DNA of 64,000 bases from Cenococcum geophilum (taxonomy: Eukaryota): assembly GCA_050273025.1 (NCBI GenBank), contig CP158635.1, forward strand, positions 1,240,001 through 1,304,000. Reading direction: 5' to 3'. The translations under genes and the position numbers were made by a program. The notes beneath the pieces were generated by a model. It ran no database searches, was not told the DNA's origin, and worked only from the letters and a program-made list of their open reading frames with translations. Shown here piece by piece: positions 2,139-58,858 of this stretch. Each line of letters starts with the position of its first letter. Within the stretch, counting starts at the first letter, position 1.

Positions 2139-2321
2139 GCGGTATAGAGTTTTACCAATTCTATCGTTAAATAGGCCAATTAGGATTTTCTATCCCTTAG
2201 ATAGAAAATCGCTATTAGCTTAGTTAAGGCGGTAAGCAGAACTATCTTTATAGTAGGTCTTAGTAAGGCAAATCTAACTAATTAAATAACTTTAACTGGT
2301 GGTTAAAGTTCTTTAACATCT
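2139..2321. promoter_or_regulatory. Shared palindromic CCAAT module, copy A (Gypsy-1 3' UTR); function inferred
   Basis: ccaattaggattttctatcccttagatagaaaatcgctattag at 2176-2218 plus aatctaactaattaaataactttaactggtggttaaagtt at 2271-2310; homologous to 11922-12057, 14193-14357 and 37499-37572. Confidence 0.55.
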
Positions 2322-5070: not shown

Positions 5071-6899
5071 ATAAGGGCTCGTTCTTTATTTATATACTAT
5101 TCCTATACCGTTTAAGCATATACTAATTTACTTTATAATAGTTCCGTTAACTGCTTTATTTAATTAGTAAAGTTATATATATTAATTAGTTAAATCCTCT
5201 TAATTATAGGTCCTATTATATTAATTTTGGGTTATAGTTTAAATCTAAGTTAAGGGTCTTATCCGTAGGTTATATAGAATAGCGTTACGCTTATTAATTT
5301 GTTTCTTATATTATTTATAATAAACTTAGCTAAAGGTAGCCACTTTTCCTAGTTATCTTATAGGTAAGAGTAGTATATTTATAAGTATTATTCTATAATT
5401 GCGTTCGCAATTTTAGTTTAACTATCTATCTTTAGATAAAATATAGTTAAGAGTTATATTTATATACTTAATTATTTATATAGGGCTTATTAAAAGTCTA
5501 AAATAAACTAGCTTTTATAGTTAGATATTATTAAATTAGGAAGTCTATATAGCTTAAAGACGTACTTAATAAAATATTCGGCGACTAATATTGCATTAAT
5601 TAAGTCTAAAGGAATTATATATTGTATTTTTATAAAATAGTTAACAATTACTATAATATTTATAAACCTATTACTATTAGGTAGGTTAACTATAAAGTTA
5701 ATTAAAATATCTCGCTATCTTTATATTAGAATTGGTAACGGTTAAAGTACTCCTTACTTCTTTATATAAGAGGTCTTCCTATATACGCATATTTTATATA
5801 TTTAAACGCATTTTTATATATAGTTGTGTATTATAAGCTAATAATATACTTATTAAATAATTTTATAGGTCTTTATATAGCTAGGGTGCCCTACTATAGG
5901 GGAATTATATATAAATTTAAGTATCTTAAATTATAAGGGTTTAGAATTCGGGCCTACTATTTTTTATTAATAGTATAACCAATTATTACAGATTTTGTAT
6001 TTAGTAAGTATAATATTCTTATATTACCATTTCCCTATTTAAATTACTTTTATTATATCTACTATCTAAAGGTTATTCTTATATTTATGCTTTATTAATT
6101 TATTAATTTATTCCTATTAAGCTCCGCGTTTAAAAATATAGGGTGTAGTTTCTTAAAGCGTTTAGGTTGTAGTAGAATTTATAATTAATTTATAATCTGT
6201 TTATTAGAGGCGTTAATAGGTAAGTTTTATAATTATTATATTAATAAGTTAGGCTTCTAATTAAGTTTACTAGGTTAGTATATAATCTTAAAGTTAAATT
6301 ATAAGAGGTATTCGGCCTAATAAATTTAGCATTATATTTGTCGGGAATGAGGCAAGCGGTTATTACGTAACGCCGCGGCACTAGCGTGGCGAGGAGTCTT
6401 AAGCTCCTCGCCCTCCCTTATTCTAATAAAAGAAGCTTTATTAACTAATATTACTATAACCTACTTAAGTAGTTGTTATTGGTAAGTCACCCTATATAAC
6501 TAATACTAATTAGTAGTTAAATATATAGTTAACTATAGAGCAGCTAGGTTTTTAAATAGAAGAGATAGTCTTATATAAAGGTGCTATATGCGCTTATATA
6601 GAATAGATCCCGGCGATACTGTGCTACCTTAAACTTGCGGAAAACTAGTAATAGAAGTGTTACTAAGTACTAGGAGATACTAAGTTGCGTTTATTATATA
6701 GAACAACTACGTTTATAAAGATTTGGTTAAGTACTTTAGGTTAAAAGTGTTACTAAACCTATAGTCCTAAGTTAACGTCCGAAACGCGTTAAACGACGTC
6801 TAAAACGCGTTAAACAATATCTTAAATTGCCTACCTCTTAACAGTAAACCTACGAGATCCTATAAAACCGAAAATCCTACCTACCTTTAATATATAACA

Positions 6900-9800
6900 C
6901 CCCGTTAATTCTATACCTACTATAGCGTTAACCTATTTAAAGAAGTATAAGAAGGATATTAACCCGGAAATATGGAATACTAATATAATTAACTTTGTAA
7001 ACGCTAAGCAATAGGACCTAAATGGATTCTTATTATACCGTATAGTATACTATAAAGATAGCGAATATAATAATACTATGCTATGGTATTATATAAAGGA
7101 GGACTTTATTAAATAGATAAAGGAAATATAAACTCCTATAAAGAAGGATATTATATAAGACTTCCGTAACTTCTTACGGGAGTATAGAGTGTTTATACTA
7201 ATAGATGGGGGTATTATTAGAGATAATATTTGGGAGCAAGTTATTAACGTAAAAGAAAAGCACGAATAGACTCTATAAGAGATTAAGCACTAACTACGCA
7301 CTATAAGGAAGCTTAACTTATAATAGAACCTAAGTAATATACCTCTAAAGACAAACCTACCTCCACCTTTAACTCCTCTATATCTAATTTAACCCATAAC
7401 CTTAATATTAAATACTATACCCTAACAAGAGCAGATATAGGATCCTATTGCTTCGCGATTTAATAACCCTTAGACTCTACTGACTAGACCTACGTCCCCA
7501 CTACAGCCTATAATGCAACTCCTACCTCCTCTATCTTAATCTTAAATTAGAGGTAGTTTAAAATTGCTTATAGAGCTTACGAAGCTCTACTTAAATTAGG
7601 AGAAGAAGTTTAGCGGGGAATTATATAATATTCTTAATTCAAAACTACGTATCTTTTATAACTATTGCTAGAAGGTAGAAATAGAGTCTAATTAATACTA
7701 CAACGCCTATTCCGTTATGCTTAAGGGCCAAGCTAGTACCTTCTATTATAATTATTTAGCAGGAAAAGGATATAATTTTAACTGTATAATATATAAGTTA
7801 AGATACTATTTTAAAATAGAAGAGAATAAGTAGCAGTATTTATTAGAATGGAGAGAGACTACCTTTTTAAGGATTATTGCTATAAACCTAGGTGTCCCCC
7901 GGCTTAATTATCTTTAAAAGCTCTTTAATTAACTTTAAATAATTTAGCGTGGTTTATCCGAATTATATTAAAAGGATTTTAGCCTATATAATTAAGTTAT
8001 TAGCGTATACTAAGGCGTTAAAGAATACAACCTTATACTTTTTAATCCTATAAATACTTATAAAGGAGTATATGCTTAATTAAGATCTTCTATTAGCACC
8101 GCTCTACGCTCTTAAGAAGTATAGTAATTTAACACCTAACTCTAACCTACTTTAATTAACCTGCCTAACTAATATAATTATAACTAGACTAATTAAATAT
8201 ATAGTGGCCGGGGTAGATAATATAGTAAAGGGTATAATTAATAACTATAAGGTAAAGGTGGAGGCCCTTATAGAGGTTTATTTTAAAGTAATCGCTAGAA
8301 AAAGTGCTATGTTTGTAAGAAACCGAATTGCTAATTAACTAGGTATTCTCTTAATAAGTAAAAGGAGGTATATAATAAGTTTTGCCAAAGTATAAGAAAT
8401 GTTAGAAATTATAAGGTTACTATAGCCTACTTCTAAAGCTTCCTGGTTTAATATAAAGGCGTAGAAGATCTTAAGAGTAAGGTTAATAAGGCCGAACAGC
8501 TCCTTATAGATATAGAAATTAAGGACTACTTACCTAACCAATACTTTACTAAGTATAGTGAGGTAGATAGTAAATAAACTATTACTATTCTTAATAACCA
8601 ATCTACGCTCTACTCTATTACGAAGTTAGATATCTTTAATAAGCTATAGAAGAGTTTTACATTCTCCTTTAATAATAGATACTTAGCAAACATCTTCTAT
8701 AGTATTATACCAGACACTAGAGCCGCAGGAGTATCTATAGTAAGAGAACCTTAAGTTTAAGCCCTTTAGTAGCTTAATAGCTCTATTTAGATTAACTATT
8801 TAACGGCAGGCTAATATATAATTTGTTTTAGTATGGGTACTGCAATCTCTTTTAGCACAATTAGGGTCCAAACCCCCTTAGGGTGCATTACTTTCTACAT
8901 TATTCTTATAAATACCCCGTTTCTATTTTACATTAAAGATATAAATAAATTAGGCGTTAAGCTTAATAACCTTAAAAATATACTTATTTAGGGAGATAAT
9001 TGGGTGCCTATTATACGCAAGTAGGGTTACCCCTAGTTGCTCCTTTATTAACTAGAAAAGAGTATTACTTAGAGCTATTTAACTAAGTTAGAGTTACGTT
9101 AACTATACCGTTGTTTTAGCCACCCCTCTATTTACTAATTACTTAAGGTTCTTTAGTAAGTAGGCTATAAAGTTAAGGTTAAGGCAATTAAGCACCTTAT
9201 AAAGTACTACTATTACTATTAAATAAACTAGAAGTCCCCTAGCCGATTTAAGTTTACCCTTAAAGATAACTACAACTTTAACTTCTATATTATTATTGAC
9301 GTTATATACCTTAGCGGCAAGCTAGTACTCTAAGTTATTAACTTCTTAACCTCCTTTTAAGCCGCACGTTTTTTAAAGGATATATTAGCTAAAAACGTAT
9401 AGGATACCCTATAATTATGCTAGATTAATATCTACCTAGAACTCCCTAATTAAATCGTTTATAATATAGGAAAGAATATCTTATCTATAGAGTTTTAATA
9501 ATAGATAAAGGTAATGGCAATTAAGGTTAAGGAAGTCCCTATTAAAGTATATAATAGTATTAAAAAAGTGGAGCGATATTACGCGCCATTACGCCGCATA
9601 TATAAGATTATCTCTTTAGAACTAAAGGATACTAGCAAAAAACTTACCTTATAAATAGCTATTAAAGCCATTAACGATTCCGCTGGCCTAAATAGACTTA
9701 TACCTATATTACTAGTCTTTAGCGCCTACCCTTAAATAACTAATAATTCTCTACTATCCCCCTCTATTATATAATAAGCTAAGGCTATTTATAAGGTAAT

Positions 9801-11895
9801 AAAGGAGGTATAATATCTCTACGCTATACGCTAGGTTAATAACGCACTAGGAATAAGAAATGGTCTAAATACCTTAACTACGCTTAATCTACCACTCTAG
9901 TCTAAGGTACGCATATGGCGTAAAAAGGGAGGATAGTTAGGCCTATATTAACTTATTATAATTAATAGTTAGACTTATATTATTTAGATACCTTATAGAC
10001 CTACTTAATTCCGTTTAACTATTATTAAGCCTTACTATAAAGATAACAGTTCTAAGCCTTTATAGGATGCTATAGGAGATGCCCTAAAGGAGAGCTATAA
10101 TTAACGTACTCTAAAAGGCAACCATAATTCTAATACAATTGTAGTAGATACGCCGTAACTATAACGCGGTAGAGGTCGCCTAAAAGGATTATAAAATCGC
10201 TAATACCTTATTAATTTTAAAGAGTAATTTATTGCCGCTATTAAGAATAGAGTTAAGTTATTAATGGCCTTTATAACAGCTAAGGAGAAGGCTAACTTTA
10301 AGCTCGCAAAATAGCTTTAAAAGGAAGGTTATATTATAACTCTAGGAGCTCCTTTCCAAGCATCCGATAAGCAAAAGATTAATAGTCTTATTACGAGAGG
10401 AGTCTTTAAATTTAAGAAGTATAACCCTACTAAATTTAGTAAAGTTCGTATCTTTAAGTTAAAAATAGTTAACGAGATTAAGGGCAAAGCTACTAACGCC
10501 CTATTTAAGAAATTAAGGCTTATTATCTAAGGTTATAATAATAATAGTAAGGAGGTAATTTTTACGCAATCTCCTATAATTTAACGAGCTAGTTAGCGAG
10601 TTATTGTTATACTAGCTCCCTCCTTAATAAAGAATAAAATGGCGGTCTATTTATGAGATATTACTTAGGCCTATACCTAATTAGAGACGCACCTTTAGCG
10701 CTTAATATTAGCATACCTTTTAAAGTAAATTCGCTACTAATATCCCGAAGATATAATTATGGTTATGCTTAAGCCATTATATAGAATTGCAGAGGTAGGA
10801 ATTTACTAGTAGGCTACCTACAGTAAGCACTATAAAGAGAAGCTTTTAATAACTACTTCTATATTTAATCCCTGCTTCCTTATTATAACTATAGGAACTC
10901 TATTTAGAATTATTGGCATATAAACTAATAATATAATTATCTTAGGAGACAACTAGTTCTTAGCTCTTAAAGAAGACGAGCTAGTAGAGGTAAATCTTAT
11001 AGCAAAGCTAAAGGAAAAGCTTAATTTAATAATACTATTACTTTTTAATAGATGCATCCTCTCCCTAAATAAGGATTTTATTGCTTTACGCCAGAAGGGT
11101 TAAGGTAAGAAGATTAATGTTATTAACGTTAACTCTCCAAAATAAGAATATATGGAGTAACGCGCTTATAGAGCTTATATTACTTCTATTTATTAACCTA
11201 AGGCTTTATTTAATCTCTCTATTGCCGCCTAATACTAGGAACTAACTAAGGATAACGTTCTTGCCCTAAATAAATATCTTTTTTAGTAAATAAACCATCT
11301 TAATTAGGGACTACTTTATATGCCTATTAATCTTCCTACCGCTAAGCTCTTTATATTTATTAATAGACTGTTTATAAATAATAAAGATTTTAGCTCCTAG
11401 CTAGAATATAAGATTATTATCGCAAACGAATTTACTGGAGAGAATAGCTTTATAATCTACGGTAATCTTATCTATTAGAGCTTAATTAAGAGTAAACGCG
11501 TTACTTAAAGCGCTCTAGCGTTAGAGATATATAAAATAGTTAGCGGAGTTAATATGGTAATTATAATTGGAACTACCTTAAAGATAATTATAGATTAACT
11601 TAAACTTCCTATTATCCCTATAATTATATACACCGACTTATATTCCCTCTATAAGTATTTAGTTAAGCTTGGTACTATAAAGGAGAAGCGCCTTATAATT
11701 GATATTATAGTACTTTAGTAATCCTACGAGCGTTAAGAACTCTTTAAGATTTAATAAATTAATAGCTAAGATAATATAGTAGATGTAATAACGAAGGTAA
11801 ACCTAAATAAGGCACTAGAGACGTTTGTTAATATAAATACTTTACGTATACGAGTTAAAGGTTAGGTTAAAAGGGAGTCCCTAGAAATTTCTTAG
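6900..11895 (+). pseudogene. Copia-1 gag-pol polyprotein, RIP-inactivated
   Basis: KCYVCKKPNC knuckle (~8300), PDT(G)AA protease (~8710), integrase VERYYAPLRR, RT TQSP.I.R, DIT(Q)AY and LKPLY, RNase H TD.YSLY. Confidence 0.88.
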
Positions 11896-11921
11896 TTACG
11901 TAAGGTCTTAAGATATCTAGG

Positions 11922-12057
11922 AACTTTAACCGCCGGTTAAAGTTGTCTAATTGGCCAGATTCTATAGACCCTAACTTAACCTAGCTAATTAGGATTTTCT
12001 ATCCCCGGGATAGAAAATCGCTATTAGCTTGCTTATAACTAGCGCCTTAGCGGCCCT
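11922..12057. promoter_or_regulatory. Shared palindromic CCAAT module, copy B (Copia-1 3' UTR); function inferred
   Basis: aactttaaccgccggttaaagttgtctaattggccagatt (11922-11961); ctaattaggattttctatccccgggatagaaaatcgctattag (11985-12027); ctagcgccttagcggccct. Confidence 0.55.
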
Positions 12058-14192
12058 AATATAATATATACTTATAACTCTAAGCAAGAAAGCACTACGT
12101 CCTAAAAGGTAAATTTTAGGATAGCGAGACTTATATTATAATGGCAATAGTAAGTAAGAAAGATTAGTATTTGTTACGCTAGTTAAGTAGCATTTATATA
12201 TAGATGGCAACTATAAAAGAAGAGTTGCTAGTGTTGGGAATAAGGCAAGCGGTTATTATATAACGCCGCGGCACTAGCGTGGCGAGGAGTCTTAAGCTCC
12301 TTGCCCTCCCTCATTCTAATAAAAGAAGCTTTATTAACCAACATCACTGTAACCTACTTAAGTAGTCGTTATTGGTGAGTCACTCTGTATAACTAATAAT
12401 ATTAATTGCTTTATAGTTATAAAAGTACTATAGGTTTTTATAATCCGTTAATACGTGTATTAGGAATAATAATCCTTTAAGTTTTAAATACTATTATTTA
12501 AAACATCTAATAATTATAAGTAGTTTCTTATTATAAATCTTATAGTTTAATTCAGTAGGGGTATGTTTTTAGGAGAGAAAGGCTACTAGGCATAGCTCGC
12601 CGTTCTTATTATATTATAATAACACTCCTTCTAGTATATAATTAGATAAGTCTATTTTAATAATATATTTAAGGTTTAGATTAAAGTAGGTAAGAATTAA
12701 AGTAGTTATAAAATAATATTTTAGGTTATTAAAAGCTTATTTATATTTAGTAGTCTATTTAAATCTTATGTTTTTCCTTATTAAGTTTACTAATAGCTAA
12801 ATAATTTTTAAGAAGTAATTAATAAATTAATAATAAAAATTTGCGAATCCTAGAAAATTTTAGATGTTTTATATACTACTAAGACTTTCCTAGTTTATAA
12901 TTATAGCGATTTTTTTAGGGTCTATTTTAATTCCATTATAGGATATAATTAGGCCTAAGTATATAACTTTAGACGCGTAGAACTTATATTTCTTAATATT
13001 ACATTATAAGCCTATGTCTTATAGGCGTTTAAGGACTATTTAGATGTACTTTTAATACTTAAAAAGTAAAGATAAATAGATTAAAATATTATTAATATAC
13101 GCGGTAATAAATATATTAAGGAATTCGCGAAGCGTATTATTAATATATTACTAAAATATACCAGGACCGTTCTTTACACTAAATAGTATTACTAGGTATT
13201 TAAAAAGTCCCTATTATATATAGAAAGCCATATACTTCTTATCTCCTTTATAAATACGGATTTAATTAAAGGCAGCGACTATATTAAGCTTTATAAAGTA
13301 TTATACTTTTATTAAGTAGTTAAGCGTTTCTTAAAGTAGAGGAATTAGATATTAGTTTTAAATTATAATTATATTTAGGGCTTAATAATTAATATAGAAC
13401 CTTAAGCCTCCTTTAAGTTTCTTAATAAATAGTAATTAACTAGGGCGAATAAATCCTTTCTCTAGGTGCTCTTTAAGGTATTATTATATTATAAGCAGCT
13501 CTTCTTACGATATACCGTATGATGGGCTGAACTTTAGCATTATACTAAGTTTAAGTTTTATCTTAAAATTGTGCTCATCTTAATGCCGGGGTAGTTAGTT
13601 TATAAATTGTTTCTTAAACATATTAATTAGATTATAATATTCTTTAAGTATAAAAGGTTAGGGGTTAATATATTGCTTTAGTTCTAACGCCTTCTTAATA
13701 TCTTTTAGTATTATATTAAAGATCTTATAGTCTCGTTTTCTTACTAATAAATAAAAGGGTGCGGCTTATATTATATAAATTTTAAGGGGTTTTAATATAT
13801 TATCTTCGCATTTATAAGGTAAGGATATGGATAGGGAGTCCAATGATAGAATAATGGGTATATTATATAGACAGAGACAAATCCTTAAGGGAAAAGGAGG
13901 AGTCTGTGTGCGAGGTAGGAAGGGTTTTCCCTAGGCACGTGCAGAGCACGTGCCTTACGGGCAAGTCACCCCTGGGTTGCCCCAGGGTCGCCCATACCTT
14001 ACGGCTATATAACTATCTACTTAGGTTTTACCTAACAATGCCCCCCCCTTTAAAAAGGGTCGTTCCCAATCCTTTATATACTTAAGCCTTAATAAAACCC
14101 CATAAAAAACCTTAGTAAGAAAAAAATTTAGAGGGAAAAGAGCGTCTTAATTTTGCGTATAGAGAGACGGGTAGTATATATACGCGGCGCGA

Positions 14193-14357
14193 AGATGTTA
14201 AGGAACTTCGACCGGCGGTTAAAGTTGTCTAATTAGTTAGATTTGCCTTACTAAGACTCCCCTACATTTAACTGAGCTAGTAGTGATTTTGCATACCTGG
14301 TATAGAAAATCCTAATTGGTCTATTTAACAGGTAGAGCTAGTAGAGCTTAATACCGT
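14193..14357. promoter_or_regulatory. Shared palindromic CCAAT module, copy C (Gypsy-2 3' UTR); function inferred
   Basis: aacttcgaccggcggttaaagttgtctaattagttagattt.. followed by ctagtagtgattttgcatacctggtatagaaaatcctaattgg; reverse-complement homolog of 2139-2321. Confidence 0.55.
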
Positions 14358-20310: not shown

Positions 20311-21201
20311 GAAAAATTAAACCGGCTATCCTCCTAAGGGGATTGGTAAGGATTTAAATGTAAGGTAAGAATGTGGATAGGGAGTCTAATGATAGAATAA
20401 TGGGTATATTGTATAGACAGAGACGAATCCTTAAGGGAAAAGGAGGAGTCTGTGTGCGAGGTAGGAAGGGTTTTCCCTAGGCACGTGCAGAGCACGTGCC
20501 TTACGGGCGAGTCACCCCTGGGTTGCCCTAGGGTCGCCCGTACCTTGCGGCTATATAACTATCTACTTAGGTTTTACCTAACAGCATTCTTTACCGCAAT
20601 TAGCGGTTATAACTTTTTAATATTAGTTTAAGGTTATAATAAGGGTAATTTATATTATATTAAATTTAAATAGTTATATATATATTTATAGGGCAAGTAG
20701 TATTTTAAGTAATAACTTCGGTAGTAAGTTATACGAAATTTTAGTATTTCTTTAACCTAGTTAATTAAAGGGTTATATTATTTTAGCTATCTATATCTAA
20801 GTATTACTTTATAATACTTTAAGGGTATTATAAATAGGGAAATATATTTAAGGTATTTGCCTATCTATATCTTTATAAGAGCGTAGTATATTAGTTTACT
20901 ATATATTAAAGGCTTACTATTAAAGCCTTATAGGCCTTAGGGCTTATTAAGTTTCTTTAAATTTAAGCGTTAAGTTTTCGCGTAGTTTGTACTAATAAAG
21001 CCTATATTAGTAGCTCCACTATTTATAAGAATTTATACTTCCTTTTATTTTCTAAATATTTAAATTTTACTAAGTATATTAAGGGAGTTGTATTATATAT
21101 TAGCGCTAGAAGAGCCTAGATACTTATACTTTTCTACTTCTTATCTTAAGATATAACTTAGCCCTAGGATAATTTATTTTCCGAATTAACTAAAGATAAG
21201 A

Positions 21202-23550
21202 TTTTTTTAAAAATATCCGTTGTATTATACTACGTACAATACTACGCATGCAGCCTCTAGGCTATAGCGCTATAGTCCTATATATATGAATCCTTTAGGG
21301 CAGCTTAACATGTACTAGTAACTATGTCCTAGTGGTTTATAAGCCCCTAAACTAGGGGTTTATAGTTCCTTAGTAAAATACTAAGTTATAAGCAACTACT
21401 AGGTAATAAGAAAACGGTAGAAACCTATAAGAAATAAGAAATCCTAACGCTTATCCCTATTCTTTTGTAATTTAATTCTATCCTTTTGCTTACTAATATC
21501 TCTTTACTAACGTATTTGACCACTCCCCGGCCCATACTAGTCCTCGGCCCACTCCAAAAACCACTAAAAATCGGGAAAATTGCATTTTAATATCTTAACA
21601 ATGGCTTTATAATAAATTCTAAAATTCTATAGCTAACCTTTTATGCCTATTCTAAGACTCTACTCTAACTTTAGAAGGAATTCATTAAGTAGTTCTAGAG
21701 GAATAGCAATTTAGCTCAAAATTGGGGGCCAAAACTCAATATCTTAATAATGGCTAGGCTTATTATTCTAGAACTTTAATAGGAGTCTTAGAATAGATAT
21801 AAAAGGCTAGCTATGGAATTTTAGAATTTATTATAAAGCCGTTGTTAAGATATTAAAATGCAATTTTCCCGATTTTTGGTGGTTTTTAGAGTGGGCTGAG
21901 GACTAGTGTGGGCTGGGGAGTGGTCAAACACGTTAGAAGCCTAGTAGGAGTTACCTCCTTCTATAGATCCTGCTATTATTAGCCACTTTCTAATAGCTAT
22001 TCCTGTCCTACTTAGAAATAGGAAAAGCGCCTCTCTTCCTTTTTATATACAAAATAGCTTTTCTAGAGAGAGAGAAGAGCTTAGTTTCTTTTGCATTTCT
22101 CTTCTTTCTTCTCTATATAGGTTGCAGTCTAGTAATAGGTGCCTAGGGGTTTGTAGTGCTCTACATTCCCTAAAGCATCTACCGTCTTTATCCTCCCCCC
22201 TATTACTTTAGAGAAGTATTTAAAATAGCCTTTTAGGATATTTATCCCTAGGGGCTTTAAGAGAAAAGGAATAGCTTCCTTTACAGATCCTAGTATAGTG
22301 TTTTCCCTTATTCTTATTCTGCTGCTAGTTATTTTTCTATTATTCTAGTATCTTTTCTCTTGCTGCTCTCCCTATATAGGCTAGGGAGGTATAAGAAGAT
22401 TGTAGTTTTCTTCTAGAAAGGCCCTTTTTAGCTAGCTTATCTGCTATTTCGTTCCTATAGATTCCTAGATAGCTAGGAACCCAGTAGAAGTTAATAGAGA
22501 TCCCCTTACTAGCTAAATAGAAACAGCTTTGCGTAATTTTAAAGACTAGTTCTTGCCCCCTAGTAAGAGATTTAAGCTATAATCTCTTAATAGCTGCTTG
22601 GCTATCTATAAAGATATAAACTTATTTCTCTTTTAGTCTTTATTATTTTAGGTATTCTAGGGCCCTATAGACTGTATAAAGCTCTGCGTTTATAATTTCC
22701 ATATAGGGTCCTAGATTCCAGTTTGTTGCATATTTAATCCTATTTCTCTTCCCTATTTTGCATATAGCAGCTATATTTAATTTATTGTCTTTAGAGCCAC
22801 CTATATAGTATATATCTACTAGGTCCCACTCTAGGGATTCTTATAGATTTTTTACTAGTCTTAGATGTTCTTGTACAGCTTCTTCCTTACTACCTTTTAA
22901 GATAGAAAAGGATGCGGAAATAGGAGGAGACCACGGTTTTTGCCAATCTAGAGAGATTCTCTCTATTTTCCAGTTTTGAATTAGCTACTGAACTCTAGAG
23001 GCTAGGGATAGTAGCTGTGTCTTTAGCTGTAAGAGGTGCTTTATAGTAGAGTTTTTAGGGCTAGAACTAGAGCTAGAACTAGCTGCTAATTCGTCCCTAT
23101 CTTTGTTGATCTCTTCTATATAGACCTTCTTAATTGCGTGGTTTTCCTTAAATTTTAGGATTCTTATTGCGTAGTTATTGCAAAACTTTTTAAATCTAAT
23201 CCTAGGAGGAGGAATAGAGGCTTTAATCTCTATAGCTTGGCTAGGAGATCCTCTAAACGCTCCTAGAACTAGTTTTAGAGCCTCGTTTTATAGAGATTGG
23301 TACCTATCTAGTAGGTAATCTCTAGATTTACTTTTCCACTAGCATTGTACTCCGTAGTCTGCTATAGTAGTAACGTAAGCTATATAGAGCTGTTGTAGGG
23401 CTTGTAGAGATAGACCTCTTTATGTATTACCTAGTCTTCTAATTAAATAGAAGGCTGCCTTTGCTTTAGAGATTTGTATTTCTATATATTGTTTAAAAGT
23501 AAGCTTAGAGATTAGGAATACCCCTAACTACCTAACAAGGGGTTTAGGGG
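21202..23550 (-). mobile_element. 5'-truncated LINE copy 2 (RT C-terminus, RNase H, 3' UTR) containing a MITE
   Basis: TSD taaagataaga at 21191-21201 and 23551-23561; LVR.LGVFL..KLTFKQ motif at ~23490-23540; T tail at 21202. Confidence 0.9.
21510..21933. mobile_element. MITE 1 (424 bp, ACGT termini, Fot1/pogo-like)
   Basis: ~150-bp TIRs (acgtatttgaccactcccc / ggggagtggtcaaacacgt); TA TSD; absent at the equivalent site of LINE copies 1 and 3. Confidence 0.92.
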
Positions 23551-31935: not shown

Positions 31936-33817
31936 TCTCCCCCTGAGCTTCGTTCTGCAGAGCTCTCGCAAAGCTCCACAGCTCTACGCAGAGGGCTGGC
32001 GGCGTGGGCGTTGGTGTTTACTGCGCGGCTTGGCGGTGCAGAGGTGGAATTAGGGCCTCTACGGCGACGAATTCCTCTTAACGTCGCGCGTGTATAAGGA
32101 GCTAAAGATCTCATAACTTATAGAGTAGGCTTTTCTCTATAATTTGGTGTAATTTTTATATTGGCAGGTTTTGTGGGAGGGTAAATTAATTTCGTTAAAG
32201 TTAATGAGGTCTTCTCATATAAACCGTGTTTAGGTTTCTACAAAGCTCGCCAAAGTGCCTCAGACCAAGAAAACGATTACCGTCCTAAATCAGCTTAGCG
32301 GACGGTGCGGATATTCCTATATCCGTAATCGATTTCTTGGTCTGGGCTTCTGAGGTAAGATTGACTCCATACTAACAGAATCACGTCTAAGTTTGCTAAG
32401 GTGAACGTCTAAGCTCGTTAAGGTAAATACAAATGTAACTGTAGATATACTATTGATATCGACGATTAATCTATATACGGCTAGTAGAAGGCTTAATTAA
32501 CACGCGCTTTCAACCATATATACTGGGGTAGTGTACGGAGGTCGCTAACATCTAAATTTGCACCTTCCTAATTAGGAAAATTGACTTACCGCCCACCGGC
32601 AGAATATGAATTTTAACGATAGACGCATTAAATTCGTTCCTAAAGCTTCAAATAAAAGGCAATATATAGATAATTGATTAATTAATTAATAAACTAGCTA
32701 TTTGGAAGGTGACGGCGACTGCGCGGGCGCAGCTTCCTGCCCTGCGACGACTCCGCTGAGGCCTCTACTGCTTAGGCGGAGGCCTCTACTGCTTGAGCGG
32801 AGTCCTCTGCGCCCTCGATTTGAGGCCTTAATTCTGCCTTCTTGGCAAGCTTTTGTATAGAGTCTTGGTGTTAAATGTATTCTAGAGGACGCTCTGCAGG
32901 ACGCTCTGCTTGGCGCAGACTGCCAGCAGAGCTACCAGCAAAGCCTTCCGCAGAGTCTCTAGAGCCTCCAGCAGAGCTACCAGCAGAGCCTGCCGCAGAG
33001 CTACCTGTCAGCCAGGCAGGTATCACGAATGACATATAGCTAGCTGATTGATATAGAGACACAGAATTGAACGATTGATCTGTTTTATTTAAGGTGGCTC
33101 CAAGAGCCCTAATATATATAATAGAATTGACCCCCTATAGGGGTCCCTAGAGGGTGGTGTAATAAGACGATATTAGGCTAATACTAATATCTAACAGCCG
33201 TCGTCACAGGTCAATATTACCCATAGGTAAAGCTACCTCCGTGGCCAACACACCCCCTTAGATCTGGCGTAGAGCGGCAGAGCTGGATTACTGGATTAGG
33301 TAGTCGTGATAGACGAGCTAGTAGTAAGCTTTGCTAAGCGTTAATTAACTAGATGTCTAATATCGCGGAGCCCTACCACGTCGACGAATTTTTAATGATT
33401 TTGCTTTAATAGAGCTTTAGTTAGTCCATCTGCAACTATCTCGCTTATCGGTACCCATTATACAACAAAGCTTCCATTTTAGACTTTTTGGCGAAGCCAA
33501 AATTAATACTAGCGTCTATATATTGCTTGGCAGCATCTACCTCAGCAACGCACAATGCTGAGACCTCCTGCAATATTCGCGAATATCGAACGCAGTCACT
33601 ACGTGGCTAATTCGCTTTTAATATCGCTAAACTTATTAATATTCATTATATATCTATCATCCATTCGTTTAAGAATTATTTTATAACGCTATTACCGCTT
33701 ATGACCAACTAGGAGATTTGTACGCGTGTATAATCCTAATAAGCAAACCCACCTGGACGACCTACCTTAACTACACTATCGTCTATAACCGCTATACCCT
33801 CCTTTACTAGTTCTATA

Positions 33818-34708
33818 ATGCCGTCTGAGGCTAATATACGCGCCGCTGCCGTAGAAGAGCGCGAAATTGCTAAAGAGTAAAGGGAATAAGCCTAAGATAA
33901 AAGGGAGATTTAGAAGTATAAGGAAGAGCGTAAAGCCCGCCTAGCGGAGGAGGCTCGCCAGTATAAATACCACCTGGCTTGAATGGCTTAATTATAGTTA
34001 GGCTTGGCCGCTTCGGCCTTATAGGCTACTATAACAGCTGCTATAGCTAATATCCTTGGTAAGCCTCTCCCTCCTAGCGTAAAGTCGCTTGAACTCCGCC
34101 TTCCTGGCGTTATAAAAAGGGATTACCTGGACATTTTTAAGGGTACCTTTAATCTAGTAAACCTCGCCTATCTTTAAGTCTATACCGCTTAAATTAAGAT
34201 CGCTGATGAGACACGGATTAAGAATGGTACTCTGGTTATAAGGAAGGTAAAGGTAGATAGGAAGCTATTTATAGATAAAGGCGTCTGGTTTAAAGGTTTT
34301 ACTAACTATATGGTTATTACTGGCACCCTTTATATATGCCCGCTAGACCTTATCGCTAGTATGCTTCTCTAAATAAATATAATTCGTACCTTATTAACCT
34401 AGTATATCTAGGTAGGTTGCATACTTAATTTAGCACTTAACTATTATACCTTTATGATAACTAATGGCTAACTAGAGCCCGCTAATTGGCAAATGCTAGC
34501 CTAGTATATAGCGCCATACCTTACGATGTTTAGTGCTATTAGCTTTACTGCCTTAAAGAGACCTAGATTAAATACCTCCTATACCTCTAATACCTGCCGT
34601 AGGTTTAATAGTAGAGGCTGCGATAATATAGCTTGTAAATACCCCTATAAGTGCTTAAAGTATAGTAAAGATTATACTGTATTATCTAAAGCTTGCGCCT
34701 AGGAATAG
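33818..34708 (+). pseudogene. Ngaro gag-like ORF1
   Basis: ATG at 33818; coiled-coil-like N-terminus; C-terminal CRRFNSRGC...CKYP(H)KC.K(C)..D(H) zinc finger. Confidence 0.8.
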
Positions 34709-36400
34709 TAAGGCGAACCTTATAAAGTAGGGTCTAGCCTAATAATAACACTAACTTTAATTATATGCCTAGGACCTAGGCCTAATACGTTACTATTATT
34801 CTCTACCTTTGTAGAGGCGAAGGCTCTTTATTACTCTCCATCGCCCCTAAGGATCTTAGCGTGGCACTTCCTTTTATTTAATTACCTGGGCAATCTACTA
34901 GCTATCTTAGTAGGTATTCTAACCTATAGCTGCGAGATAGGAGCTGAGTCTATCCCTACCCTAAGATCTTATAGGAACCATAACTCCTCTTAAAATAACG
35001 CCGACCTTATCTCTAAGAAGATAATATTAGACCTTAAAAAAGGACATATTAGAATTACGACAGGGCCTATTATAGTCTTACTTCTTAGCCTAGTGCTAAA
35101 ATTGGATGGAGAATACCGCCAAATTTACGATCTCTCCTTTCTACTAGTATCTTTAGTTAATGACGCAATTCTAGAAGAATATAGAGCACTAGTATACACT
35201 ATAGTTACCGCTATTTAAGCCTATATTATTTCTGTAGGTTGTAGATGTCTATTGCTTAAAAGAGATATTAAAGACGCGTTTTATATAGTCCCCCTATCTT
35301 ATAGGGTAAGAACATTAATGGGCTTCTCCTGGGAAGGTGTTACCTACTAGGAATACTGCCTATCCTTTGGTCTTTAAACTGCGCCGCTTATATTTAACCT
35401 CTTCGCGGAAGGCCTGCACTAGATACTCTATTTATAACTACTTTATAAGGTAGAACACTACCTAGATGACTTTATCTTTATCCTTGCCAACCTAAATAAC
35501 TTAGCGGCTGTTACCTAGACTTACATCTCTATTACTAACTCCCTAGGTATCCCTTAAAATAGCTCTAAAGATATAGCAGGAACTGTTATTAAAGTTCTAG
35601 GATATACTATTAATACCGTATAAATGTAAACGTAATTATTACTATAGAAACAATTATGTGCTATTAAGAAAGTCACTACCGCACTCTAATATGGCTTATT
35701 ATCATTCCTTTAAGCCTAGTAGCTTGCGGGCTACCTTATATAGTGCGCCCACGTAATTAGATTTGGTTGATCTTACTCTAAATCCCTCTAGATTTTTATT
35801 ACTGCTTAGCTAGAGACTTTGGTAAATAAGTATAAACCTAGGCGATTTAGTACTAAGTTACAAAGTGACTTATATATCTAGCTTAACCTACTTACTACGA
35901 GTAATAGGGTATTATTCTTTAATGATATTAAGCGTACCTATATTTATTTCTTTACTAACGCCTCTACCCGGTTTAGGTTTAGCGGCTTTTACTTTTTTAA
36001 AGAACTTAAATACAAGGATGACTAGTAGTGGTATATAGCTAACTTCCCTTAATTTTAGGCGTTTAGTATATTACCTAAGCCCAGTTAATAAGTAGACTAT
36101 ATTAATCCAAAAGAGATGCATGCTATTGCTTACGCATTTAATCTATGGTCTACCAACTGGCAGTATAGCGCGCTATCTATTTATACTAATAGTATAGTGG
36201 TTTACTAGGGCATTAAGAAGACTGTTATCTGTAGTGTAGCAAATAAATCGCTCTGTAAGATTATGCTAGCTACTATAGCTTATAATATTACAATATCCGC
36301 GAAGTGGATCCTAGGTGATTTAAATGGCTTGGCTAATACACTATCTTAATTCTAGGCCGCGGCTATCTATTAGTTCTACCTACACTAAGCCCTTAATTTA
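34700..36400 (+). pseudogene. Ngaro reverse transcriptase-RNase H
   Basis: KRDIKDAF, LSFGL.TAP.IFN, HYLDDFIF (35456-35479), FT(D)AST, INPKEM.AI, WI.GD.NGLA(D).LS. Confidence 0.88.
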
Positions 36401-37467
36401 TTACTACTAAAGCTAATAAGTTTTTAATAGGTGCCGTAAACCTAACGGACTACTTACAACCGCCTATAAACTTTAAAGATAATGTTAACGCGCTATCCGA
36501 CCTTTACGCGCTCCTTCTCTAAAACGGCCTTACGCTAGCAACCCGTAGAAACTATTCCTTAGCAGTTAATAGCTGGGAGTTATACTGCGCACTTAAAGGA
36601 GTCTCCCCTTACCTGGCCAAGCCGCGTAAACTAGGCGAATAGATTACCCGCCGCGCGTTTGGTACCTCCTAGCTATAAATAGGCAGGCTTAAGGCCGAAA
36701 CCTTACAAGCCTACGTTTCCGTAATTCGCTCGCGCCACGTGGATTATGGTATCTTAATTGCAGCATTTAAGGATCCTATAGTATACCGATTACTTACTAG
36801 AGCAGCCGCTATCTCTCCCTTAGTAAAAAAGAATAAGCAACCTATTACTAGGGATATTCTAGCCCAGGTAGTAACACACGGCCTATTGCTACTAGATGTT
36901 AACACTAATGCCGTATTTACCCTCGCATTTACTGGATTTCTACGGATAGGCGAGATTACGTATATTATGGCGGAGCTTAAGAACCAAACAACCTTCCTAG
37001 CGAAAAAGGCCACTTAACACGATATCACCTTTACGCCTAGTGGGATAACATTCCGCCTTAAATGGAGTAAAGCCGACAAGTAATACTAGGGCGTTAACGT
37101 CGCTATCGCGGTGGTAGGCGGCCCATTATACCTAGTCGCTGCTATAATAAAGCTATTTAATAGGGACCCTTAACCCCTTAACTCTCCCTTATTTAGTCTT
37201 AATAGTAAACCCTTTACCTCTTTAGGGGTTCGTAAGATCCTTTCCTTCTATCTAGTAGCTGCTAGGATTAACCTAAGTAGTTACTTAAACTACTCCTTCC
37301 GCCGGGGCGCTGCCTAGTTCGCTAAAGATTTAGGGTGTTTATATTAGCAAATTTAGCAGCTAGGTTAGTGGTTATTAGAAGCCTTTCGCCTATATATTAG
37401 GACTAAGACCACTAACCTCCGTTGCCTTAACTCTTACTTCTAGCGTAGTGTACCGCTCTTAGCGTAA
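36400..37467 (+). pseudogene. Ngaro tyrosine recombinase
   Basis: TRRNY, FTLAFTGFLRIGEIT (track ORF 36739-37017), LKWSKAD, (H)SFRRGAA, LG.W..EAFRLYI; R-K-HxxR-W-Y catalytic pattern. Confidence 0.9.
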
Positions 37468-37498
37468 GGATTACTAGGTAGTAGGTTAAGATATTAAA

Positions 37499-37572
37499 AG
37501 GGCCGCTAAGGCGCTAGTAGTAAGCGAGCTAATAGCGATTTTCTATGCTGGGCATGGAAAATCCTAATTGGT
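37499..37572. promoter_or_regulatory. Shared palindromic CCAAT module, copy D (Ngaro, after the YR stop); function inferred
   Basis: agggccgctaaggcgctag..gctaatagcgattttctatgctgggcatggaaaatcctaattgg; reverse complement of 11985-12057. Confidence 0.55.
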
Positions 37573-37591
37573 TGGCTTATAACTTAGGGTC

Positions 37592-37712
37592 GGCAGAATA
37601 TAGCAGAATACGACAATATGGCAGAACTTGGCAGAATGCGACAATGTGGCAGAATTTGGCAGAATGCGATAATGTGGTAGAATTTGGCAGAATATAGCAG
37701 AATGCGGTAATG
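37592..37712. repeat. ggcagaat-based degenerate tandem repeat in the Ngaro 3' region
   Basis: About 9 copies of (g/a)gcagaa(t/c), alternating 10- and 18-nt units. Confidence 0.8.
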
Positions 37713-40700
37713 TCTTATTGGGCGTAGGAGCTTCGCTTAGGGACATCTAGCCGCTTTAGGGCAAATCCTTAGCAGATTTGAGTGCTAGGAACTAGCAAAA
37801 CTGCTAAGAACTAGCCCTAGAGCGACCTTATAGCCCTACGCCTCCCAATTATACAAAAATTAAATATCCCCTCACGTAACTGCGATAGATAGATACTAGT
37901 GTCTATATATTGCTTAGTAGCATCTACCTCAGTAACGCATAATGCTGAGACCTTTTGCAATATTCGCGAATATCGAACGCAGTCACTACGTGGCTAATTC
38001 GCTTTCCCCACCCGCTATCCCTTATACTTAGTATGCATTATATATAGATAGCGCTTTAAGGCAATTCTTTAGTAGGTGCTAGGAACTAGCAAAACCACTA
38101 AGAGCCAGCCTTAATGCGACCACTATAGTTAGATAGTCTTACAGCTATAGGCTTACGGTCGGGGACATCTGGCCGCTTTAGGGCAAATCCTTAGCAGATT
38201 TGAGTGCTAGGAACTAGCAAAACTGCTAAGAACTAGCCCTAGAGCGACCTTATAGCCCTGCGCCTCCCAATTATATAAAAATTAAATATCCCCTTACGTG
38301 ACTGCGATAGATAGATAAATATCTACGTGTTGGAGTTTTATAGATACCATAGGGGTCTCTTTTGTTACAATCTGTACTAACTGCTGATTATTATAATTAA
38401 TAATAACGTCCTATTCGGGATCGAATCTAATGGCTTTAAAGATCCGAACTATATGCTTAACCTCCCTACTAACGTATAAGAGAGCTAGGAGTTCTACCTC
38501 CGTAATAAACTTAGTAACTGCCTTTTATCTAGTTGCCTACTATACTATAGGCCTATTAAATAAGCTTATTAAGAAGCCCTATAAGCTTTAACGTATTAGA
38601 GTATCGTTAGCAAAGCTAGTATTAAAAGCAGCTTTTAGAACCTGGTTTATCTTATACGGCGTAATAGTAGAAAACTTAAGAGTGAGGTATCTGGTATTGT
38701 AGAGATAGGTAAGTAATCTATTAATCTCCGCAAGATAAGCTGGCGACGGATTTTGTAAGAACTTAGCCAGCCTACTAACTAAGAAAGCAACGTCTGGTCG
38801 TATAGTAGATGCCGGATATATTGTAGAACCTATATAACGTTAATATCCTTTCATCTAATTTAGCGTAGCTTCTCCCTTATACGGCGTTAATTCCTAGCCC
38901 GATAGTAGTATAGCTAATAGCTTTAGATATTCTAGATGGTATATTAAGACTAGCTTTTTAAGATATTAATCTAGACAGAGCTAGAGCTTTCCCTTTTATC
39001 GATCTCACACAACACGAGTATTTAGGAATGACGTAAACTAAGGTATTTGGCGGATCTCGAATCGATCTTATAGCTACTTTAGGATGTCCTCTATCTGCTA
39101 TTAATAGCTCGGGTGTCCTATAATTAGGATATCGTTAACGTAGAAGAATATAAAGATAGGTTCGGTAGGGTATATATAGAGACATGGCTTATCCGGTATA
39201 GCTTTTAAACCCATACTCCGCAAAGCAGCAGATATTTCTAAAAACCACAATTTAGGAGATTTCCGTAGTTTGTATATTGCCTTTCTTAGATGGAGAGAGA
39301 ATCTAGGCGGTAGGTCTATACCCTTAGGGGGAACGAGGTAGACCTTATCGTTAACTAAGGCATTGATAAATGTATTGACGGCGTTAACTTGTATAACGTC
39401 GAGGTCGAAGCCAGTGGTGAGAGCGCAAAGTAGACGGAAGGTTCGATAGGCTGCCGTTATAGCTTTAACCTCCTCTTATAAGACTGCTTAAAGGTCTCCG
39501 CAGATAACTAGACGAGCTTTAAATCTTATAATAAAGCCGTCTGAATTTTCCTTATACGTAAAGACCTATATAGTAGGAAGTCGATAGACCTTCTTAATTA
39601 GTCGTACTTCGTCCTAGGTCTGCTTTCCGGTTAAGGCCCTTATCTTAGTATAAGCAGCTGCTTTAAACTCTGTAGCGTACTTATAATTAAGCATCTCTTT
39701 CCATAACTTTAGTAGTGGTGGAAAGTCGTCTTAATATCCGTACGTCTTTATAGCAGCAGTATAGAAAGCGTGAGCTAATAGTGTTATATTAGGACTGATA
39801 ATATTATTACCGTTATTGATTTGAACTGCAAAGGCTCGTTATTGTAGATCCTGATTTGGCATATCTTTCTTCTTTACCGTAGACCGCTTTTTACGGCTAA
39901 AACGTCTCTTACCCCCTAACGATAAGCCTGCTGTCGTCTGAGGTTTAGAACGAGGTGTAGGATCTATAAATAGTGGTTCGGTGACTTTAGAAGATGACTA
40001 AGTAGTAGATAATATCTGTGGCGTAGATGCTACGGTAGATAGTAATTGCTGAGGCGCCGAAGACGCTAATGGTTTAGACGGTTCTGGAGTTAGCTCCGGG
40101 GTAGGTAGCTAATAAAGTTCTTCTGTTAAGATCTAAATGCTTTTTAATGTAGGAGTAACGTTAATATTTGCTAAATGCGGCAGTCCTACATCTAGTTCTT
40201 TGTTAAAGTTCTCTATCCAGTCCTTGCTGCCATTTTAAAGATTATCTAGTAGGTTTTGGACTTGCTAAAAACGGTCCTTTTAAGCCTATGAGATAATAAG
40301 GTGTTCTAGTATTTCGGGAGATTAATATCTCTTTAACTTATTAATTCGTACGTCACGAGATCGGATAATACGGTTGGTGGTTGGTATCTATATCCTATAG
40401 ATATTTGACGCTTCTATACCGACGAGATAACCTATTTAGGCTTATGGCTTAAACTTTGCCTTCCTAGGAATGCCGTGTTTAATAAGCACGTAGGTTAAAG
40501 ATTTGGCTACACGAAGTCCTGCTAGCTATAGCTTCCGTTTATAAAGCATCTTAAATAGGGTCTTTTAGTTAATGGACTTAATAGGAGTTTGATTAAGTAG
40601 GAATACTGCTAGAAGTATAAACTCGGGCTATAGATCTACAGGTAACTTTGCTTTAATAATAGCAGTCCTTACTTATTCGGAAATGGCTCTTTCTGACCTC

Positions 40701-58259: not shown

Positions 58260-58858
58260 AAAAAAGATCGCTAAAAAATAAGTCACCTAAGGGGGACCTA
58301 AGAAGAGCAGTTGCCGAGCTACTTAGATCTATTTCCTTCTTAATTAAAGGAGAATCTATTCTTTTATTACTAAGTTCCTATAGACCCTATTTTATAAGTT
58401 TTTACTCCTTAAAACGGACCTTTTTATAAACCTTCTTAAGATGGAGTAAATGAGTAGACGCCGCGATGCAAGTATCTAGGGCCTTCTGTTCCGCATCTTA
58501 AGAACATTCTAACTTAATAAGGGCTTAAGATAGTTTACTATCTAGCCGCGTAGTAGTAGATTAAATATAAGACCCTAAGACGAATTAATTAGGGAACCAG
58601 ACGACTATTTAGAGTAATAGGTCGCGTATATTTAGTATTAGAAGTAGAGCGAACGTCATAGGACAAACGAATATTCGCTTTAGTGCACTTTAAGTAAGAG
58701 GACGATTGTCGCGAAGATGGATTCGCTAACGCAATATAAACTAACCCCTTTTTTAAACAGCGAGAATATGGAGATAGTATGATCTTACTAAAAGATAATA
58801 TTATAGTAACAGTGCGAGCACGACGTTGGGCGTATAAAGAAGAAATTGCTTTAGGTAT
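58260..58858 (-). pseudogene. Antisense accessory ORF of Gypsy-3: Zn2Cys6-like domain plus coiled coil
   Basis: Reads IPKAISS..PYSRCLKKGLVYIALANPSSRQSSSYLKCTKANIRLSY. Restoring TAY>TGY gives C-x2-C-x6-C-x13-C-x2-C-x8-C. Confidence 0.7.

Follow-up and report, generated by a model that had tools for sequence, protein, structure and literature searches.

What is a 23-bp palindrome with a CCG-N1-CGG core doing in the 3' UTRs of both Gypsy and Copia retrotransposons? The window analysed here, a stretch of 64,000 nucleotides from Cenococcum geophilum, contains three copies of this palindrome (M2), at 2288-2310, 11922-11944 and 14204-14226, each with a small ATTGG dyad attached. A sequence-only reading had described these copies as part of a cassette of shuffled blocks that accompanies another dyad, motif 1, and had favoured protein-binding sites over a single RNA fold. 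The copies and their carriers are as follows.

11922..11944, no strand assigned: M2 palindrome with 11-bp arms and a free centre base, RIP-mutated, in the Copia-1 3' UTR right after the end of pol
6339..12401, + strand: Copia-1 carrier, LTRs 6339-6508 and 12232-12401 (91% alike); RT/RNase H read on the + strand, Copia label from motifs by eye with no Pfam hit behind it
2272..2310, - strand: M2 (2288-2310) and CCAAT dyad in the Gypsy-1 3' UTR, with motif 1 at 2176-2218, the PPT at about 2055-2061 and the 3' LTR from 1746
14204..14255, + strand: M2 (14204-14226), CCAAT dyad and GCCAAG-like box in the Gypsy-2 3' UTR, with motif 1 at 14277-14319, the PPT at about 14041-14047 and LTRs at 13815-14037 and 20361-20583

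The arrangement around motif 1 was as the earlier reading had it. M2 lies on the GCTATTGG side of motif 1 in Gypsy-1 and Gypsy-2 and on its CCAATCAG side in Copia-1, and it is absent from the Ngaro-type element (32900-43400) at up to 5 mismatches. Compared with Gypsy-1, the Gypsy-2 unit is inverted relative to its element.

The palindrome predates RIP damage

The window consists of RIP-mutated repeats (TpA/ApT 1.5-1.9 throughout), and all three of its M2 copies are RIP-mutated; the unmutated spelling given in the sequence-only reading is present exactly elsewhere. Across the 178 Mb of the genome (7 contigs), a RIP-tolerant search returned 3,689 copies, against 0 for the reversed control. Unmutated M2 with CTGATTG attached occurs in 21 copies, and its 17-mer core in 46. 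Metagenome contigs, which may derive from the same species as the genome, carry unmutated M2 at 122 or more loci. Because the control gave no matches and unmutated copies exist, we conclude that M2 is real and older than the RIP damage, and reject its origin as a RIP artefact.

The constant partner of M2 is a CCAAT box

M2 had been thought to travel with motif 1, and in general it does not. Motif 1 lies within 130 bp of only 38 of 80 consecutive M2 copies, M2 lies within 700 bp of motif 1 in 7 of 30 copies, and motif 1 is missing beside M2 in families A, B, C and U6 and in the LTR copy. The constant partner is the strict ATTGG dyad, present in 3,122 of the 3,689 M2 copies. The true unit is CCAAT plus M2, rather than M2 plus motif 1. 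In Copia-1 its further parts are these.

11946..11959, - strand: CCAAT box (ATTGG at 11950-11954 on the + strand) within the small dyad
11896..11903, no strand assigned: E-box-like octamer, the RIP form of TCACGTGA, 26 bp ahead of M2

This CCAAT box points antisense, towards pol; its distance is 5 bp to M2 and 13 bp to the CCG triplet. The octamer, which resembles an E-box, belongs in Copia-1 to a block also present in Gypsy family B.

The general layout is an upstream flank of about 12 bp, M2, 5 bp and ATTGG. Usually there is also a GCCAAG box at +43 to +47, along with a nearby octamer resembling an E-box. Almost all family pairs have in common a core of about 11-13 bp upstream, M2 itself and 18-20 bp downstream. 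RIP changes aside, the 22 arm positions and CTGATTGG are constant across families. All four bases occur at the centre of M2, base +23 and flank positions -3, -4 and -7 are variable, and the right arm of the small dyad deviates in families C and D. The GCCAAG-like box is retained at +43 to +47 in all families despite indels, and the TCACGTGA-like octamer sits at -25/-26, -33, +56/58 or +70, depending on the family.

Unmutated, the CCAAT box reads CCAATCA and fits the CBC consensus, CCAATVR (PMC7144946). In the accessible text of the same source, CBC covers the 13 nt that follow CCAAT, and this footprint length is exactly the CCAAT-to-CCG distance in the unit. The host HapB gene is intact in the genome. 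The GCCAAG box agrees with the PacC site GCCARG (PMC5468973), a match of letters in a lone, and hence weak, 6-mer. The CCG-N1-CGG arrangement of M2 is absent from the sites shown in the available part of PMC5468973.

Leaving the inner 13 bases of M2 free gave 3,177 copies genome-wide, against 3,122 with them fixed; with a gain of only 55, there is no abundant compensatory class of M2. The bare 13-bp core searched outside the block gave 4 matches against 6 for the control, showing no enrichment outside retroelements, and all 4 belong to a variant found in another LTR family, in its 5' leader. Host promoters therefore give no evident sign of a host factor that recognises exactly this site, and host-promoter copies of the core were set aside as no more frequent than chance.

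Motif 1 and block 3 share one stretch in Copia-1 and Ngaro

The remaining blocks occur in the window in Copia-1, the two Gypsy elements and the Ngaro-type element.

11985..12027, + strand: motif 1, a dyad with a 7-bp spacer and an inverted CCAAT box on either side; other copies at 2176-2218, 14277-14319 and 37529-37571
12039..12057, + strand: block 3 (M3), 11 bp past the ATTGG-like box of motif 1
37499..37571, - strand: block 3 and motif 1, without M2, behind the tyrosine-recombinase ORF of a Ngaro-type element on the + strand (assigned by an RVT_1 match and by YR motifs seen by eye)

A third block common to Copia-1 and Ngaro had been proposed, and the 19-mers at 12039-12057 and 37499-37517 are indeed identical, with block 3 and motif 1 of the Ngaro reversed relative to Copia-1. 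The idea of at least three shuffled blocks held in part: shuffling is observed, but block 3 is not independent of motif 1 in these two elements, where both belong to a single continuous common stretch of 98-111 bp. Block 3 follows motif 1 at +54/55 in 24 of 30 motif-1 loci and, of 50 distinct places in the DNA compared, 48 have it exactly 11 bp past an ATTGG-like box. In unmutated copies it contains CTTGGC, which is GCCAAG reversed. It also occurs without motif 1 in the LTRs of Gypsy A and Gypsy D, directly ahead of the TATA box. M2, motif 1 and block 3 are all CCAAT-anchored, and two of the three are TATA-proximal in the LTRs of some families.

Carriers are diverged and the unit faces either way

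We surveyed 80 consecutive M2 sites in the first 2.95 Mb of contig 1, clustering their flanks and orienting them by tblastn; the family names are our own labels. Copia-1 accounted for 16 sites, Gypsy C for 13, A and B for 12 each, D and Gypsy-1 for 10 each, Gypsy-2 for 4, family U6 for 2 and an LTR for 1. Against the integrase of family C, those of A, B, D, Gypsy-1 and Gypsy-2 show 25-31% identity. Outside blocks of 45-110 bp, most family pairs have little DNA in common, the exception being A and B (77% alike over 1.3 kb). Seven families have the unit in the stretch from pol to the PPT. It faces antisense in six of them, with CCAAT-to-M2 directed into pol (A, B, C, D, Gypsy-1 and Copia-1), and sense in one, the inverted Gypsy-2. 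Taken over all carriers, the unit is found in U3, 5' leader and 3' UTR, at 87 to about 250 nt from the PPT, and several abundant families are without M2 or motif 1.

A structure linked to the PPT was rejected, since the unit lies at varying distances from the PPT and also occurs in 5' leaders, and since a YR element carries motif 1 and block 3. A nested solo LTR or MITE was also rejected: around M2, what the carriers have in common with the LTR family is limited to about 12 bp on the upstream side and 18-30 bp on the downstream side, and there are no termini. No DNA transposon carried M2 among the 80 genomic and 122 metagenome copies listed. One candidate, a hAT-like ORF at locus L068, was discarded as an insertion about 500 bp off that is missing in sister copies. 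This short hAT-like element, at about 500-1420 bp from M2 and inserted in a U6 element, has terminal inverted repeats of about 23 bp and a dimerisation-domain remnant recognised by eye.

The unit also occupies LTRs and 5' leaders

A second Copia family has the M2 unit within both of its 181-bp LTRs, in the order CCAAT-M2-TATA. Loci L264 and L265 are full elements with M2 in both LTRs, a 5-bp TSD, a PBS and a PPT. The U3 order is E-box, reversed GCCAAG, CCAAT, 5 bp, M2, 22 bp and TATATA. Among 100 LTR copies with both ends called, a PBS adjoined 38, a PPT 35, a TSD 20 and both PPT and PBS 1, with none of these at 6. TG...CA ends, TSD, PBS and PPT thus identify a bona fide LTR for this one family only, and its Copia identity comes from a relative with Copia gag and integrase domains. 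The 173-182-bp LTR houses 17 of the 21 unmutated M2 copies, and LTR-type copies make up 104 of the 122 metagenome matches listed. Because unmutated copies are biased towards short solo LTRs, the LTR family should be regarded as a small share of all M2 copies. At metagenome loci L143, L114, L108, L111, L102 and L145, unmutated 181-bp LTRs with an intact module lie about 0.2-1 kb from intact ORFs, among them ORFs with HET, DUF726, carbon-nitrogen hydrolase and Ist1 domains. Such RIP-escaped solo LTRs beside host genes may have rewired host expression.

In U6 the unit precedes a gag-like ORF by about 200 bp in 29 of 30 copies, facing gag, and integrase lies upstream in 24 of 30. U6 (L266/L267 and L302-L307) is a composite repeat of at least 14 kb with DUF6589. 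It comprises two head-to-tail Gypsy-like units, about 77% alike, with M2 ahead of gag in each and no obvious LTR between integrase and gag.

The variant family, with 10 RIP-tolerant copies, has its site in the 5' leader, about 330 bp past the LTR and about 30 nt ahead of the gag ATG, again facing gag. Two positions of the outer arms are changed without compensation, and pairing is lost. No change affects the inner 6+6 bp or the CCAATCAGAC spacing, apart from one extra base in one copy.

Copia-1 points to exchange with Gypsy donors

Copia-1 exists in two subtypes with the unit at an identical place. Subtype 1 has 43-50 bp upstream and 34-50 bp downstream in common with Gypsy B (94.7% over 75 bp, with a PPT-like G-run kept), and subtype 2 has 26-28 bp upstream and 93-141 bp downstream in common with Gypsy D. 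Because each subtype has stretches in common with a different Gypsy, the alignments point to two captures by Copia-1, from B-like and D-like donors. The window copy is without the GCCAAG box and the G-run present in sister copies, and would apparently be a deletion derivative, with the deletion between short repeats. G/C and A/T flips of the M2 centre base occur within families. Such flips would be consistent with the palindrome inverting in place, a process that could preserve perfect arms even if symmetry were not selected for. Junction microhomologies and deletions were found inside the cassette, and the invariance of the unit may stem partly from recent exchange.

RNA data are compatible with several readings

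The Copia-2 element was partly present in 20 of 24 RNA runs, and reads from four of the 24 were mapped to one such element. In run X21, reads at 937-1170, in the internal region, fell on a single strand (19.3 against 0). This is consistent with sense transcription of relatives, the strand reading assuming the usual library type; the raw reads of X21 are mostly less than 90% alike to the Copia-2 element. Deep RNA contigs start at 746-766, although contigs cannot show transcription starts, and no pile-up of transcription starts was found on the Copia-2 element in the four mapped runs. A contig from run X9 spans the 5'-leader variant and extends 144 nt upstream of it, so the variant may lie inside the transcript and not ahead of its start. 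The RNA data neither prove nor refute a promoter reading. At L264, 17 reads from X21 link the 3' LTR start (6298) to position 588 with 13 other letters between; they probably represent a related LTR variant rather than a circle.

A composite DNA site is the favoured reading

The proposal that the shuffled blocks act as DNA sites, and not as a single RNA fold, is supported by the orientation, position and variant data. DNA sites are preferred because the asymmetric CCAAT and GCCAAG boxes are kept facing either way, because the unit is found in LTRs (with CCAAT and TATA), 5' leaders and 3' UTRs, and because in the variant pairing is lost but core and CCAAT spacing are retained. Together, M2 and its CCAAT box probably form a composite promoter/enhancer module that would act on double-stranded DNA for host factors and be traded between superfamilies. 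The host CCAAT-binding complex (HapB/C/E) would bind the CCAAT box. The adjoining CCG-N-CGG core would be the site of a partner that acts as a dimer, plausibly one of the host's Zn2Cys6 proteins, and PacC-type and bHLH factors would perhaps add input. Families could gain the block from one another through template switching or through nested insertions and deletions, and it would be kept since it raises or times transcription, as an LTR enhancer or as an antisense promoter. The order CCAAT-M2-TATA in LTRs, the occurrence in both orientations, the deep divergence of the carriers and the invariance of arms and CCAAT all support this promoter reading. Against it, U3 and 3' UTR both belong to the genomic RNA, just 1 of the 80 consecutive genomic copies is LTR-borne, and the leader variant lies within a frame that is open upstream of the first ATG. 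The 3' UTR unit is also 5-6 kb from the 5' LTR, which is far for a fungal UAS.

The palindrome could instead serve as an RNA or cDNA hairpin for dimerisation, packaging, strand transfer or RNA stability, indifferent to strand through its perfect palindromy. A 10-bp stem with a free loop, a site close to the 3' end of the RNA in most families and within a 5' leader transcript in one, and the CHS precedent in fungal Copia elements (PMC5445492, accessible text) speak for it. The predicted fold of the block is about -21 to -24 kcal/mol; either strand of a perfect palindrome gives the same fold. We nevertheless consider a hairpin unlikely. Rfam gave no match at E<=1 in two unmutated loci; M2 has no abundant compensatory class; pairing is broken in the sole diverged variant; CCAAT and GCCAAG, which differ between the strands, persist whichever way the unit faces; and the position varies from U3 to 5' leader to 3' UTR, at no set distance from the PPT. 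Slightly more doubtful still is a DNA site with a role in chromatin: an anchor that is nucleosome-free or counters silencing, or else a tether used in integration or in looping between LTRs. Indifference to orientation and position and the distance from the 5' promoter in most carriers would suit such a site, and CBC and Cbf1-type factors displace nucleosomes, but the order CCAAT-site-TATA in the LTR, like that of block 3, is most simply promoter anatomy.

The block may also be a neutral passenger, functionless outside the LTR family, whose palindrome stalls RT, promotes template switches and corrects itself. The microhomologies and deletions inside the cassette, centre flips that would fit in-place inversion, and the absence of M2 or motif 1 from several abundant families would all be expected of a passenger. 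Sharp conservation of arms and CCAAT against variable neighbours, retention of the CCAAT spacing in the diverged variant, and the apparent double capture by Copia-1 at the same place make this quite improbable. Little more credence, on a par with the chromatin site, goes to a wider version of the promoter module, a regulatory commons in which Gypsy, Copia and tyrosine-recombinase elements would trade CCAAT-anchored sites under one switch, supplied partly by mobile DNA, with the antisense 3' UTR copies as promoters of regulatory antisense RNAs. Part of the switch may come from mobile DNA because the genome holds six broken NF-YA copies and thousands of zinc-cluster-like ORFs.

The six broken NF-YA (HapB-like) domain copies are present besides the intact host gene. 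Around one of them (G000:C7:4783895-4784056, locus L345) the DNA is RIP-mutated. The strand opposite this copy carries a broken MADS-box (SRF-TF) domain, and a Gypsy-A LTR-like piece separates the two remnants, which are possibly transcription-factor cargo of a large mobile element.

A link between the motif and a Cys-rich ORF in the window had been suggested as a speculative possibility.

58502..58831, - strand: disrupted Cys-rich (Zn2Cys6-like) ORF in the antisense direction within the 3' part of another Gypsy, outside the module

In this explanation, the ligand of M2 would be the zinc-cluster protein of the abundant Gypsy family at 58260-58858, acting in trans. The CCG-N-CGG core fits such a ligand, and the ORF family is very abundant, with 3,168 first-look candidates genome-wide. 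The suggested link found no support: neither M2 nor motif 1 occurs in any of 20 ORF-family loci of about 3.3 kb, that is, within about 1.5 kb of the ORF. By tblastn the ORF was not found in the carrier copies tested, several of which were 5-kb pieces only. The window copy has no Pfam zinc-cluster match, and all 150 copies scored contain stops. We regard this ligand as highly improbable.

Comparison with known systems

It is well known that LTR promoters are made of host factor sites. The Ty1 enhancer is located in the 5' coding region. This internal enhancer is bound by Tea1 (a zinc-cluster protein), Rap1 and Mcm1 (PMC10968565; Gray and Fassler 1996, by its title), and resembles the M2 unit in having internal, non-LTR sites in a fungal retrotransposon and a host zinc-cluster factor. 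Unlike M2, it belongs to a single family, and the accessible part of PMC10968565 does not describe a CCAAT-anchored unit. The U3 modules of the ERV-9 and PERV LTRs contain CCAAT (NF-Y) boxes (PMC10968565) and, as far as that text goes, are alike in setting CCAAT beside fixed-spaced sites upstream of TATA. The M2 module differs from them in occurring also outside the LTR, in either orientation and letter-identical in Gypsy and Copia.

The RM boxes of Sireviruses are palindromes with a CGG/CCG core, found both ahead of the LTR TATA box and within the internal linker; they are conserved although their flanks have diverged, and a regulatory role has been proposed for them (PMC2829016). M2 is likewise a CGG/CCG-core palindrome upstream of an LTR TATA box. 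RM boxes number 8-32 copies per element, are mostly CGG...CCG and belong to one plant Copia lineage, with no tie to CCAAT in the portion of PMC2829016 available. M2, by contrast, is present as one copy per LTR or UTR, reads CCG-N-CGG and occurs in both Gypsy and Copia.

The GalEa CHS is also a short palindromic non-coding stretch common to different families within a species (PMC5445492), and its RIP form, CTAATTAGT, is the same as that of our small dyad. As described in the accessible text, it replaces the PBS directly after the 5' LTR, whereas the M2 unit lies elsewhere and the LTR family has a normal PBS. CHSeq1 is CTGATCAGT, paired with CHSeq2 12-41 bp off, and the unmutated copies here read CTGATTGGT. 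By position and by the lack of CTGATCAGT, the unit was rejected as a CHS, a comparison on which the extended CHS sequence table could bear. The bipartite CBC:HapX site, CSAAT-N12-RWT (PMC7144946), resembles the unit in its CCAAT box and in a second site that begins at the edge of the 13-nt CBC footprint. The M2 unit has ACC at positions 13-15, not RWT, and a GC-rich dyad as partner; with RWT missing, identity with this site, as given in the accessible text, was rejected.

We found no description of the module in the literature covered, in which subscription journals are thinly represented, nor by its sequence letters among the matches listed. Within that coverage, no precedent was found for one composite site that passes unbroken from Gypsy to Copia families and occupies LTR, 5' leader and 3' UTR alike. 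If the promoter/enhancer reading is true, it would give a testable account of how many unrelated families are switched on jointly in a RIP-active fungus, and a short sequence with which to fish out the factor.

Other features of the window

A DNA transposon at 70-1646 has perfect 40-bp terminal inverted repeats (70-109 and 1607-1646) and a DDE-like transposase remnant recognised by eye. MITE-like long inverted repeats lie at 61661-62102 and 21507-21936, with arms of 173 and 154 bp set 96-122 bp apart.
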